Shown piece by piece: positions 25,853-28,479 of a stretch of 64,000 nt of DNA (position 1 is the first letter of the stretch; each line of letters starts with the position of its first letter). The stretch is from an uncultured virus (IMG/VR IMGVR_UViG_3300042860_000278) (taxonomy: Duplodnaviria > Heunggongvirae > Uroviricota > Caudoviricetes): the IMG/VR virus record IMGVR_UViG_3300042860_000278; one strand, given 5' to 3'. The notes under the pieces are model-generated. The model made no database searches. It was not told the DNA's origin and saw only the letters and a list, made by a program, of their open reading frames with translations. Position numbers and translations under genes: made by a program.

Positions 25853-26098
25853 TTACTTGCCCCTTTGACGATACGCACGGGTTTTCTGCGAGATGCCTTT
25901 GGGCTGCGCGACGAACTGCTTGCCTTGGGCTTTTCCTCGGCGCTTGGCGGCAGTGGTTCGGGCGTACTCAGCAGGGCTGAGAGCTTTAATCGCAGCCTCT
26001 GGTAGATATCTTTCACCCGTATCAGAAGATCGTTTACCACTCTTTGTCCTCCACTTCTGGGCAGTCCATGCCTTCAAGGATTGCTGCGGGGCTTTCAT
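25853..26098 (-). CDS. Small basic protein (Q.SLK.W..QKW.TK...RYLP family)
   Basis: Very Lys/Arg-rich; ATGA-coupled to the upstream gene. Confidence 0.7.
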   Translation of the reverse strand: MKAPQQSLKAWTAQKWRTKSGKRSSDTGERYLPEAAIKALSPAEYARTTAAKRRGKAQGKQFVAQPKGISQKTRAYRQRGK

Positions 26099-26391
26099 GA
26101 CGTATATCCGCCGCCTTTTTCCTTATACCGCTTAGCCAACAACTGCGCCTTACGAGCCGACCATTGACCTGCCGCCGTGCCCTGAACAGCACTATTCTTG
26201 ATGCTGTTGAACAATGCTTTACGCATACTGGGCTTGGTGTAGTTACCGGCTTGGTTGACCTTGCTCTCGCCGCCTTCTTTGAAAGTACGGATGGGCTTGC
26301 CCGTCCCGATCACAGGCTTTTTATCCCCGCGCCGCTTAGCACGGGGGATCTTTTTAGGGTTAATGTCACCCATGCCTCGGGACGCCATCAT
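26095..26391 (-). CDS. Small basic protein (NYTKP...GQWSARKAQL family)
   Basis: Recognisable motif; also contains FKEGG. Confidence 0.7.
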   Translation of the reverse strand: MMASRGMGDINPKKIPRAKRRGDKKPVIGTGKPIRTFKEGGESKVNQAGNYTKPSMRKALFNSIKNSAVQGTAAGQWSARKAQLLAKRYKEKGGGYTS

Positions 26392-26744
26392 CAGACAATC
26401 TTCCCGCGAGTCTTGCCTTTAACAGCACAGCCGTCAGCACGTTTGGAAGCGGAACCACCTTCCGAGAACTTCTTAAATCCGTACTTAGGACCGAACTTCG
26501 GCATCCGACGCTTACTCGCTTTGAGCATACCGCCTTTTTTGAAAACGCCTCGGCCTTTCAAAACGTCAGCACGAGTAACTTTGCCGTCACCCGTCAGATC
26601 AGGCATGCCGCCACCGGCTAACTTTTTTTCTGACTCTTCATCCGGCATATCAAGGCTTTTGCCCGGTGCTCGCACCGCAGCCATGTAAATGCCACGAGGA
26701 CTAGTTGGGCCGATTGCCTTACGAGTCTTAGGACCACTGCTCAT
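26391..26744 (-). CDS. Small basic protein with a DxTGDGKVT.AD loop
   Basis: Start moved to the ATG of a TAATG overlap; LAGGG, FKKGG and FSEGG motifs; ADG.A.KGKT.G tail. Confidence 0.65.
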   Translation of the reverse strand: MSSGPKTRKAIGPTSPRGIYMAAVRAPGKSLDMPDEESEKKLAGGGMPDLTGDGKVTRADVLKGRGVFKKGGMLKASKRRMPKFGPKYGFKKFSEGGSASKRADGCAVKGKTRGKIV

Positions 26745-27124
26745 TAGCATTTACCGCCGTAGTTCATACGAACCATCTTGCCCTTGGTCTTGCCCTTGCT
26801 GGCAATACCGTCAGCTGCACGACGATAAGAGCCGCCAACCGAGCCACCCTTAGCAAAACGAGTATTACGTTGCTGGACGGGGCCTTCATCTTGGAACTTG
26901 GGTGGTTTGAACGGAAGCGGGGCAGGTTCTCCACCCATCGCCATTTTCTTGACGCCCTTCTTTTTCATGAAGGCCACTTCTTTCTTCATCATTGCCTTGG
27001 TGTCGCCCCCCTTCTTCATTCCCGGCGGACGAGCCATAGCACGGCCAACCATGTCAGGAGTTGCGCTAGCGGGCATAGCACGGCCAGCTTTCGACATATT
27101 AATTGCTCTGCGGGACATTCCCAT
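26744..27124 (-). CDS. Small basic Met/Lys-rich protein
   Basis: MKKGG, MAMGG, FAKGG and MNYGG motifs; ADGIASKGKTKG tail. Confidence 0.7.
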   Translation of the reverse strand: MGMSRRAINMSKAGRAMPASATPDMVGRAMARPPGMKKGGDTKAMMKKEVAFMKKKGVKKMAMGGEPAPLPFKPPKFQDEGPVQQRNTRFAKGGSVGGSYRRAADGIASKGKTKGKMVRMNYGGKC

Positions 27125-27126
27125 GA

Positions 27127-27270
27127 TTATTTCCTCTTGAACTTGCGACCCTTGTCAGCCTTCATGAACTCCTTCCCAACCTTCTGGGGGACTCCAAGAC
27201 GTTTGGCTGCTTTCGGGTCGTTAGCAACCAAGGCCATCAAACGATGTTGTTTACCCGACTTGCTTGGCAT
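27127..27270 (-). CDS. Small basic protein, 47 aa (MPSKSGKQHRLMA...VGKEF..ADKG)
   Basis: Below the ORF cutoff; fills the gap; recognisable phage peptide pattern. Confidence 0.7.
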   Translation of the reverse strand: MPSKSGKQHRLMALVANDPKAAKRLGVPQKVGKEFMKADKGRKFKRK

Positions 27271-27499
27271 TGTGATTCACCAATCTGTCTATTTTCTGCT
27301 CCAGCCGGTCAAGCCGGTCAAGAAGCATCTGGGCATCGGCTCGGACTTCCGCACGGGTGACATGATCACGAGCCACTTCTTCTCGGGTCTTGTTGAGGAG
27401 AATCCCCAAACGTTGAAGTTCGGCAAATTTCTCTTTCACAACAAAACCCAAAACGGCCACGATTCCCGTAAGAACCATGTTCCATACCAACATTTCCAT
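27251..27499 (-). CDS. Single-TM coiled-coil protein
   Basis: N-terminal hydrophobic helix, then LDRLDRLEQKIDRL. Start set at the ATG just after the upstream stop. Confidence 0.65.
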   Translation of the reverse strand: MEMLVWNMVLTGIVAVLGFVVKEKFAELQRLGILLNKTREEVARDHVTRAEVRADAQMLLDRLDRLEQKIDRLVNHNAKQVG

Positions 27500-27500
27500 C

Positions 27501-27755
27501 TCAGCAGTTCCATGCTCGTAAGGACTTGTTGATACGACTGTTGGGATCATTGGCTGTCTTGGCACTCGTAAGCTTTTTCTTCATTCCGGTCATTCTCGCG
27601 CAGAATGATTTCTTACGAGCGCCACCTTCCGGCTGCGGACGTTTCAGCCCCGGCTTACCGGGGTTAGCGCGGTTATAAGAAGCCCGACCTTTGGCATTTA
27701 AGCCGCCAGCAGGGTTTTTGCCTTCTTTGCGCTGCCAAGCCGGAGTTTTAGCCAT
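27501..27755 (-). CDS. Small basic protein (AWQRKEGKNP.GGLN...SFCARM family)
   Basis: Recognisable motif family; ends SLRAWNC. Confidence 0.7.
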   Translation of the reverse strand: MAKTPAWQRKEGKNPAGGLNAKGRASYNRANPGKPGLKRPQPEGGARKKSFCARMTGMKKKLTSAKTANDPNSRINKSLRAWNC

Positions 27756-28102: not shown

Positions 28103-28339
28103 TTACGGAGTCAGGCTGGAATACAGCGCGATGTACTTGACGGTCGATCCAATCTTGACCGGGATATAACCGGCTTGAGCCGAGACCGCGCCCGTGGCAA
28201 CACCGGCAGTGATCGTGGTCGTGCCGACAACAAGAGTGCCCGTTGCAGTGACCGTAACAGCGGCCACCAAATCGCCAGCGATATCGCCCTCGAAGCCATT
28301 GTCAGACTTAACCGGGCCGGAAAAAGTAGTACGTGCCAT
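28103..28339 (-). CDS. Probable capsid decoration protein (MARTTFSGPV family)
   Basis: Directly downstream of the major capsid gene; GAGG SD. Confidence 0.6.
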   Translation of the reverse strand: MARTTFSGPVKSDNGFEGDIAGDLVAAVTVTATGTLVVGTTTITAGVATGAVSAQAGYIPVKIGSTVKYIALYSSLTP

Positions 28340-28427
28340 TTCAATTCCTCACATGCGAGTAAGTGTTTACCAGTCTGCATGTCGTCAGTCGGGTCTGTCT
28401 GGTAAACGAATTTTTCCCGATAACGAC
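28335..28427 (-). ncRNA. Structured 5' leader with hammerhead-ribozyme-like topology
   Basis: UCGGG/CCCGA stem, then CUGACGA, then CAUGC/GCAUG stem; 9-bp loop-loop pairing GUUUACCAG/CUGGUAAAC. Confidence 0.5.
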
Positions 28428-28438
28428 TGTATATCACC

Positions 28439-28479
28439 AAAAAAGAGGGGCTACAAGCCTGTTTAACTTGTAACCCCTC
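28439..28479 (-). terminator. Rho-independent terminator after the major capsid gene
   Basis: 13-bp stem GAGGGGUUACAAG/CUUGUAGCCCCUC (one G-U) followed by U6. Confidence 0.85.

Follow-up and report, generated by a model that had tools for sequence, protein, structure and literature searches.

Large RNA motifs that are rich in covariation, have invariant junctions and belong to no described family have often led to new classes of riboswitch or ribozyme. Ribozymes like that of hepatitis delta virus (HDV) form a nested double pseudoknot of helices P1, P1.1, P2, P3 and P4. Operator pseudoknots such as those of T4 gene 32 and of the E. coli alpha operon (S4) and rpsO (S15) lie in 5′ leaders, at or near the ribosome-binding site of a highly expressed gene, and both ompA-type 5′ hairpins and the exoribonuclease-resistant RNAs of flaviviruses and plant viruses place structure within a few nucleotides (nt) of a 5′ end. 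For hammerhead ribozymes, the available text of PMC3088659 states that natural cores fit the consensus “almost without exception” and that stems I and II are joined by a pseudoknot in about 40%, with four to six pairs in the cases it presents. Here, we describe a leader RNA on the minus strand of a 64,000-nt stretch of DNA (the window) from the uncultured virus IMGVR_UViG_3300042860_000278 (Caudoviricetes). The leader lies between the major capsid gene and a gene whose product begins MARTTFSGPV. An earlier note made from the letters of the window (the sequence-only reading) had proposed that this leader is a hammerhead-like RNA that engulfs the ribosome-binding site and start codon. Judged by covariation among related leaders, the element is a conserved, previously unnamed RNA family of HTVC023P-like aquatic phages. 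It occupies the 5′ untranslated leader and comprises four helices, which form a double pseudoknot of ~85 nt.

The sequence-only reading had described three helices: stem I, stem II, and a perfect 9-bp helix between their loops. For a first clade, we used the window capsid protein to retrieve 80 IMG/VR loci (85 to 99% identity), and a plain MAFFT alignment of 48 leaders, not fitted to any structure, was tested for these helices. In this alignment, 84.5% of cells were paired, compared to 28 to 44% in slid controls, and 174 cells were changed on both sides, compared to 24 to 50. None of 500 shuffles reached the observed pairing, number of doubly changed cells, or covariation score; two stricter counts were unexceptional (reached by 95 and 149 of 500 shuffles). 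A covariance model built from stems I and II only (R1) gave 72 matches with E values of ≤0.0012 across 83 sources; no locus had more than one, and the window had a single match (28334 to 28427; 88.3 bits). Four weak matches (E values of 0.011 to 0.88) fell at capsid start codons. The 70 complete R1 matches served as the first-clade leader set for a test of the full structure. Among them, 88.5% of cells were paired (19 to 43% when slid), 22 of 24 pairs were changed on both sides (7 to 13 when slid), 355 cells were changed on both sides (20 to 69 when slid), and the covariation score was 0.560 (at most 0.11 when slid); none of 500 shuffles reached any of the five measures. Because R1 does not contain the loop-loop helix, the counts for that helix are independent of the model.

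A second clade was sampled with the capsid of phage DSL-LC04, at ~66% nucleotide identity to the window capsid gene, which yielded 80 further loci. R1, which contains neither the loop-loop helix (P2) nor a further helix, X, described below, matched 67 of the 80. In the 55 distinct rows, 94.2% of cells were paired, compared to 22 to 44% in slid controls, and 19 of 24 pairs were changed on both sides; again, no measure was reached by any of 500 shuffles. P2 spans 8 to 10 bp, and all 9 of its tested pairs change on both sides across the 70 and 55 leaders, as do all 6 pairs of P3 (stem II plus one pair). Since the alignments contain one-column register slips in stem I (P1), this helix was tested separately. 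A perfect 5-bp complement of the five nucleotides preceding the 3′ strand of X was present in the 5′ region of 106 of 113 distinct leaders, at a fixed offset of 7 to 8 in 98 of the 106 and with 18 arm types. As a control, cross-matching between different arm types succeeded in 28% of cases. In the seven leaders without such a complement, the register is shifted by a 4-bp X or a similar cause. Covariation in the leaders of MARTTFSGPV-family genes, which the sequence-only reading had suggested as a check, supports stem I, stem II, and the loop-loop helix. We conclude that these three helices are real and above chance, and the sequence-only reading was right that a conserved RNA fold lies in this leader beside the Shine-Dalgarno (SD) sequence. 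G-U cells outnumbered A-C cells in both clades (72 versus 42 and 39 versus 16), which places the structure on the mRNA-sense strand. A DNA-level reading, as an operator or a cruciform, is rejected on the basis of this excess together with the fixed link to the SD sequence and AUG.

The fourth helix, X, is formed by a CNG just 5′ of the P1 3′ arm and a CN′G just 3′ of the same arm. It occurs as ACAG..CUGAC, ACUG..CAGAC, ACCG..CGGAC, ACGG..CCGAC, and CUCG..GAGAC, and it is 96.2% paired in the 70 leaders. The middle pair, in the 69 cells with letters, is AU in 37, UA in 24, CG in 4, GC in 1, and UG in 1, with 2 unpaired. In the 55 rows of the second clade, X is 100% paired, with a middle pair of AU (40 rows), UA (7 rows), GC (5 rows), or CG (3 rows). 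In three leaders (L078, L088, and L093), both strands of X are one nucleotide longer, which extends the helix from 3 to 4 bp (CUAG/CUAG). Helix X takes the C, U, and G of CUGACGA, the word that had been read as a hammerhead core, and the U pairs with the A of the upstream ACAG. From 5′ to 3′, the order is P1-5′, L1, P2-5′, A, X-5′, N, P1-3′, X-3′, AC(G/U), P3-5′, (A)GA, P2-3′, L3, P3-3′, SD, and AUG. P2 and X make up a central hairpin that is interrupted on its 3′ side; P1 ties the apical loop of this hairpin (the P1 3′ arm) to the 5′ tail, and P3 ties the bulge on the 3′ side (the P3 5′ arm) to the 3′ tail. Almost no variation is seen at the C and G of either X strand, at the GAC that follows X, or at the GA that precedes P2-3′; in GAC, each of the three letters is at least 90% conserved in both alignments. 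We infer that all four helices coexist in one fold.

On the minus strand of the window, all the words quoted by the sequence-only reading are where it had placed them, including the arms of stems I and II, CUGACGA, the SD sequence, and the start codon. The P1 5′ arm, UCGGG (28420 to 28416), whose complement is kept across leaders, is followed by the A-rich linker L1, AAAAAUUC (28415 to 28408), variable in length and sequence. The P2 5′ arm, GUUUACCAG (28407 to 28399), has 9 nt and is 100% complementary to the P2 3′ arm, CUGGUAAAC (28373 to 28365), so the perfect loop-loop helix described earlier stands, with all nine pairs covarying. A conserved A (28398) precedes the X strand CAG (28397 to 28395), which pairs with CUG (28388 to 28386), the first three letters of CUGACGA (28388 to 28382). 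The loop of X is the P1 3′ arm, CCCGA (28393 to 28389); both X and this arm are supported by covariation. The junction ACG (28385 to 28383) makes up, with the G of X, the almost invariant GAC. The P3 5′ arm, ACAUGC (28382 to 28377), has 6 nt, 100% complementary to the 3′ arm, GCAUGU (28356 to 28351), and a repeat finder returned both the 9-nt and the 6-nt inverted repeats of the window leader as 100% complementary. Between the P3 arms lie the junction AGA with the conserved GA (28376 to 28374), the P2 3′ arm, and the variable 8-nt linker L3, ACUUACUC (28364 to 28357). The SD sequence, GAGG (28350 to 28347), is directly 3′ of P3, and the AUG (28339 to 28337) follows seven nucleotides after it. 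The nested single-sequence fold of the window leader (−23.0 kcal/mol; z, 0.21; 109 of 200 shuffles fold equally well) is uninformative because the proposed structure is a pseudoknot. We also noted an alternative helix, CAGUCG/CGACUG (28424 to 28429 with 28386 to 28391), extendable to GUCGUUA/UGACGAC in the window subclade; it would lengthen P1 at the cost of X and the start of P3, and would form only in transcripts that read through the capsid terminator. GUC in the 5′ flank is limited to the nine closest relatives.

Like type III hammerheads, the element has adjacent hairpins with paired loops and a short junction, which reads CUGACGA in about half of the members. In contrast to them, its junction U is Watson-Crick paired and covaries, and we found no stem III, no GAAA, no conserved cleavage site, and no covariance-model match. 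The loop-loop helix also differs, with 8 to 10 bp here and 4 to 6 bp in the hammerheads described in the available text of PMC3088659. A search of Rfam 15 at the gathering score gave no match in the whole window or in 20 diverse relatives. At E values of ≤10, no hammerhead (Hammerhead_3 and its relatives) or other ribozyme matched the window leader or a consensus-like leader, and the weak Rfam matches of the window leader fall on the terminator. CUGANGA is present in only 61 of 125 leaders (25 of 70 in the first clade and 36 of 55 in the second), and is replaced elsewhere by CAGACUU, CAGACGA, CGGACGA, GGGACGA, and other words. The proposed stem III, GUCGU/AUGGC, was paired in 41.7% of cells, compared to 41.7% ± 0.9% in shuffles and 33 to 46% when slid, and it is abandoned here. 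The first four nucleotides after stem II are AAGG in 27 and GAGG in 27 of the 70 leaders; of the other 16, most have different words that contain GG, and 4 have GAAA. In the second clade, they are GAGG in 32, AAGG in 13, and GAAA in 3 of 55. This position is the SD sequence, and each leading GAAA belongs to GAAAGGA. Anywhere between stem II and AUG, GAAA occurs in 19 of 70 and 13 of 55 leaders; the spacer is A-rich, and the word is there by chance. No column is conserved in the 7 nt that precede stem I, and hence there is no conserved cleavage-site context. A transcription start 0 to 3 nt before P1, as predicted below, would moreover exclude the proposed 5′ strand of stem III from promoter-derived transcripts. 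A hammerhead core word and two hairpins are not sufficient to call a hammerhead, and the comparison of leaders indicates that this element is not one.

The surroundings of the fold are also conserved. In both clades, every complete match of the element ends at the AUG of the downstream open reading frame (ORF). The SD sequence begins 0 to 3 nt after P3 in nearly all of the 70 and 55 leaders. Of the 70 leaders, 59 have a −10-like hexamer (at least 4 of 6 positions, with A2 and T6) no more than 25 nt from P1; the commonest distance from its end to P1 is 8 nt, and in 30 leaders the distance is 7 to 9 nt. Six of the 70 have a perfect TTGACA at −35 with a spacing of 16 to 17 nt. Transcription is predicted to start within about 0 to 3 nt of P1. 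In the window, a putative −10-like box, GATATACA (28435 to 28428), ends 7 nt before P1. Upstream is the major capsid gene (302 amino acids; minus strand, 29415 to 28507; PHROG “major head protein,” E value of 3e-23), and its intrinsic terminator, correctly recognized in the sequence-only reading, lies just upstream of the element at 28479 to 28445 (15 pairs, 7 of them GC, with a loop of 5 and the tail TTTTTTGGTG), with a T run extending to about 28439. The capsid terminator overlaps the next promoter (28439 to 28479 in the window; in relatives, for example, 2280 to 2320 of L024), and if the element comes immediately after the capsid gene, the loop and 3′ arm of the terminator give a weak −35-like TTGNNN, 16 to 17 nt before the −10 box.

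The sequence-only reading had tied the element to the capsid terminator. This tie is not required: in at least 16 loci, the element is 690 to 1,140 nt from the capsid gene and has kept its own promoter, so that promoter, leader, and gene form a unit independent of the terminator. The gap between capsid gene and leader holds a GIY-YIG plus NUMOD3 endonuclease gene in L067 (2548 to 3279), an Endonuclease_7 gene in L077 (2464 to 3324), and a sub-threshold LEM-3 GIY-YIG match in L056 (2585 to 3325). These are free-standing homing-endonuclease-like genes between the capsid gene and the promoter-leader unit, and similar ORFs are present in L017, L018, L029, L062, and L066. A fourth type of inserted ORF, MD..LPKTRAEAK..YFTG.PCKHGH, had no Pfam match.

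The gene downstream of the element (78 amino acids in the window, MARTTFSGPV...; minus strand, 28339 to 28103) belongs to one family. Its proteins start with MA(R/T/N)TTFSGPV, MALSTTQSIWRSGGGD, or MGFATHLGPWLLGT, and 61 of the 64 that are long enough to compare, from the 70 matches, fall into a single-linkage cluster. Among close relatives, the shared parts are 18 residues at the N terminus (MARTTFSGPVKSDNGFEG) and about 20 at the C terminus, the latter with the motif I/LPVxIGxTxxYIxLY, and the middle part between them has 0 to about 140 residues. The sequence-only reading had called the product a decoration protein. In agreement with this, two related GenBank records, and only these, carry the annotations “minor capsid protein” and “cement protein”; Pfam gave no family, a PDB sequence search gave no match at E values of ≤1, an AlphaFold2 model was unusable (predicted local distance difference test score, 51.8), and the PHROG of the window gene, phrog_36974, is of unknown function. 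We regard the gene as encoding a putative cement or decoration protein.

The element most likely functions as a cis-acting 5′ cap and ribosome-binding-site platform or as a translational operator. We tentatively favor the former: without cleaving, the element would act in cis, burying the 5′ end and presenting the SD sequence. The fold would start a few nucleotides from the transcription start, end at the SD sequence, and act in cis on its own mRNA without cleavage. The buried 5′ end would shield the message from 5′-end-dependent decay, and the SD sequence would be held in a fixed, exposed place whatever the upstream sequence. The outcome would be stable, high, and context-independent synthesis of an abundant virion protein. 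Consistent with this, the fold spans the interval from predicted start to SD sequence, and the SD sequence is outside P3, and unpaired, in 66 of the 70 leaders. The element ranges from 34% to about 60% G+C across its members; that the module works over this range and across hosts suggests dependence on universal machinery. Among known RNAs, ompA-type hairpins and exoribonuclease-resistant RNAs likewise have their structure within a few nucleotides of the 5′ end, and a further likeness is that pseudoknots lock both tails to a central stem. The present fold is far more elaborate than a stabilizer hairpin, and no three-way junction or ring fold is evident in it.

Several observations weigh against a 5′ cap and platform. 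A plain hairpin is enough for 5′ protection, and the elaborate fold with its invariant unpaired GAC and GA hints at a more specific role, in ligand or protein binding or in catalysis. A strict sigma-70 scan returned no promoter in the window itself, where only GATATACA is present. In 4 of the 70 leaders (L041, L046, L047, and L071), the P3 3′ arm is the SD sequence itself (CCUCA/UGAGG), which looks repressive. In three loci (L010, L043, and L069), the homologous gene is directly behind another ORF, and the fetched DNA has no element. Neutral in this respect are assembled contigs from four RNA libraries, which by their nature do not record transcript starts, ends, or strand: they cover the capsid gene, and one of 1,540 nt spans the leader. 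The positions where RNA contigs break, 28384 and 28372, are both within variable P2 sequence and carry no weight here.

A translational operator is possible but doubtful. A phage protein, for example unassembled cement or capsid protein acting autogenously, or a small molecule would bind the fold and stabilize P3 beside or over the SD sequence, so that translation is shut off or timed. The about ten near-invariant junction nucleotides (C and G of X, GAC, and GA) are as in aptamers and protein operators. P3 adjoins the SD sequence in all leaders and contains it in the four noted above, and with a host-type promoter, post-transcriptional timing would be useful. There are precedents in T4 gene 32, in ribosomal-protein leader pseudoknots, and in the autoregulation of P22 scaffolding protein. 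The T4 gene 32, alpha operon, and rpsO operators differ from the element in that they show no likeness to it in sequence or architecture, and in that it would lie at the extreme 5′ end of its transcript. Arguing against an operator, no conserved anti-SD sequence was found: pairing of L1 with the SD sequence was not significant (−2.77 kcal/mol for native leaders versus −2.54 ± 0.15 kcal/mol for permuted ones, with 350 of 5,000 permutations equaling the native value). Outside the shared terminal residues, the downstream proteins vary widely, and a virion structural gene would be an unusual target for a metabolite riboswitch. No riboswitch class of Rfam matched the window, the 20 relatives, or the consensus-like leader.

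It is highly improbable that the element is a new class of self-cleaving ribozyme. Such a ribozyme would cut at or near its 5′ edge, like HDV-like and hatchet ribozymes, and would free the cement message from transcripts reading through the capsid gene, or leave a 5′-OH end. Its position, just after a terminator that may leak, would suit this role, as would the invariant junction nucleotides and the compact nested double pseudoknot. As in HDV-like ribozymes, the strand order begins P1-5′, P2-5′, ..., P1-3′, the fold starts right at the element's 5′ edge, and a helix of 2 to 4 bp forms with the nucleotides immediately 3′ of P1, so that the short X is placed like P1.1. Unlike in those ribozymes, there is no P3/L3 hairpin, the last hairpin crosses P2 rather than being nested in it, P1 has no G at its 5′ start, and no HDV-type model of Rfam matched. 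Small ribozymes are common in phages, according to the available text of PMC3088659. Against self-cleavage stand the absence of any Rfam ribozyme match at E values of ≤10 and of conserved nucleotides 5′ of P1. The element's own promoter would also start transcripts at P1, which would leave almost nothing for cleavage to remove.

Action beyond the element's own translation and stability has a slim chance of being correct. As an RNA near the promoter, it could modify RNA polymerase and give put-like processive antitermination for the downstream head and neck genes; alternatively, its P2 arms could pair between molecules. In favor, a promoter immediately precedes the element, which opens a series of co-oriented genes, and covariation in P2 cannot separate intra- from intermolecular pairing. 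Against this, the element is invariably fused to the SD sequence and AUG of a single gene family, which points to a gene-specific role at the level of translation. The variant type III hammerhead first proposed has a negligible probability: CUGACGA joins two hairpins in the window, and their loops pair, the sole hammerhead feature found and not a hammerhead-specific one, but the proposal is ruled out by the lack of any model match, chance-level pairing of stem III, the scarcity of GAAA directly after stem II (4 of 70 and 3 of 55), and a core word that half of the leaders lack and whose U is paired and covarying, in a ribozyme whose natural cores hardly deviate (PMC3088659, available text).

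The element was found in at least 125 distinct leaders from the two capsid clades. Five related records searched whole have one or two copies; the complete genome G002 has two, about 1.9 kb apart, and the near-complete DSL-LC04 and G003 have one good copy each. Among cultured phages, Pelagibacter phage HTVC023P has the element at MN698239.1 26769 to 26860 (L283, 3774 to 3865; 55.6 bits; E value of 4e-13). This copy, at the lower end of the G+C range (34%), is flanked by gp40, the capsid gene, and its terminator on one side and by gp41 (MANTTFQGPV...) on the other, and a perfect TATAAT precedes P1 by 7 nt. The pair of HTVC023P and Pelagibacter HTCC1062 is in culture, so the element is directly testable. 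A covariance-model search found no element in Planktothrix phage Pag-Yong1, and the best match in Alcaligenes phage vB_Af_QDWS535, which lacks it, had 12.3 bits and an E value of 0.2. IMG/VR stretches matching a short capsid-peptide query pattern are estimated at about 14,000 for one clade and 3,900 for the other.

A degenerate core pattern of 20 nt occurred at 113 places (L170 to L282) when 596 Gb of prokaryote genomes were searched, with ~69 expected by chance, as an estimate. Model R2 confirmed 11 of the 113, all on contigs of metagenome-assembled genomes (MAGs) or uncultured-isolate assemblies (for example, L249, L177, L175, and L210). The taxon labels of these contigs, read for all but L252, are unrelated: Nanopelagicales, Armatimonadetes, Nitrosomonadales, Caulobacter, Caulobacteraceae, Chloroflexota, Polaromonas, Acidibacter, beta proteobacterium, and “uncultured bacterium.” Two of the 11 are about 58 to 60 kb, the size of a phage genome. 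The unrelated labels point to binned phage contigs and indicate no host; the 11 are probably phage contigs mis-binned into MAGs.

We found no description of this leader in the literature, although it may be listed among the 8,495 unnamed structured-RNA candidates from IMG/VR catalogued in PMC10690425. The “DNAVirus_N” candidates of that catalogue, as presented in its available text, similarly come from intergenic regions of IMG/VR and lie within 25 nt upstream of genes; a single nested model would not show P1, P3, and X together. The motif word is absent from the searchable supplement, and the alignment files may lie outside the part searched. The same text mentions the gene 32 pseudoknot. From the comparisons above, we rate the element as a new RNA family within a known kind, the pseudoknotted mRNA leader, with a real chance of being a new functional class. 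Its topology is unusual, with both tails pseudoknotted to one central hairpin and a fixed order of promoter, fold, and SD sequence, and the aquatic phages that carry it are a very abundant group. A new functional class, whether a self-cleaving ribozyme, a ligand- or protein-sensing switch of a virion surface protein, or a counterpart of nuclease-resistant RNAs, is conceivable but on balance unlikely. Such a class would be widespread in abundant freshwater and marine (SAR11-infecting) phages, and a nuclease-resistant counterpart would be a mechanical block of 5′-end-dependent decay in a bacterial phage. If the element is only a 5′ cap and an insulator of the ribosome-binding site, it would still be a compact natural expression module that spans 34% to about 60% G+C.

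Two further observations concern neighboring sequences. In Planktothrix phage Pag-Yong1 (L001, 3440 to 3510), a homologous gene (MSTTLFPAPV) has a different, GC-rich leader. There, GACCCGGGG and CCCCGGGUC make up a hairpin, and the loop, CCGUCUCC, has its complement, GGAGACGG, at the SD sequence. The covariance models do not match this leader, which may be a pseudoknot that sequesters the SD sequence and is unrelated to the element. In the window, the minus strand downstream of the leader's gene carries a run of small, very basic ORFs rich in Lys, Arg, and Gly (26095 to 27755; 47 to 126 amino acids).

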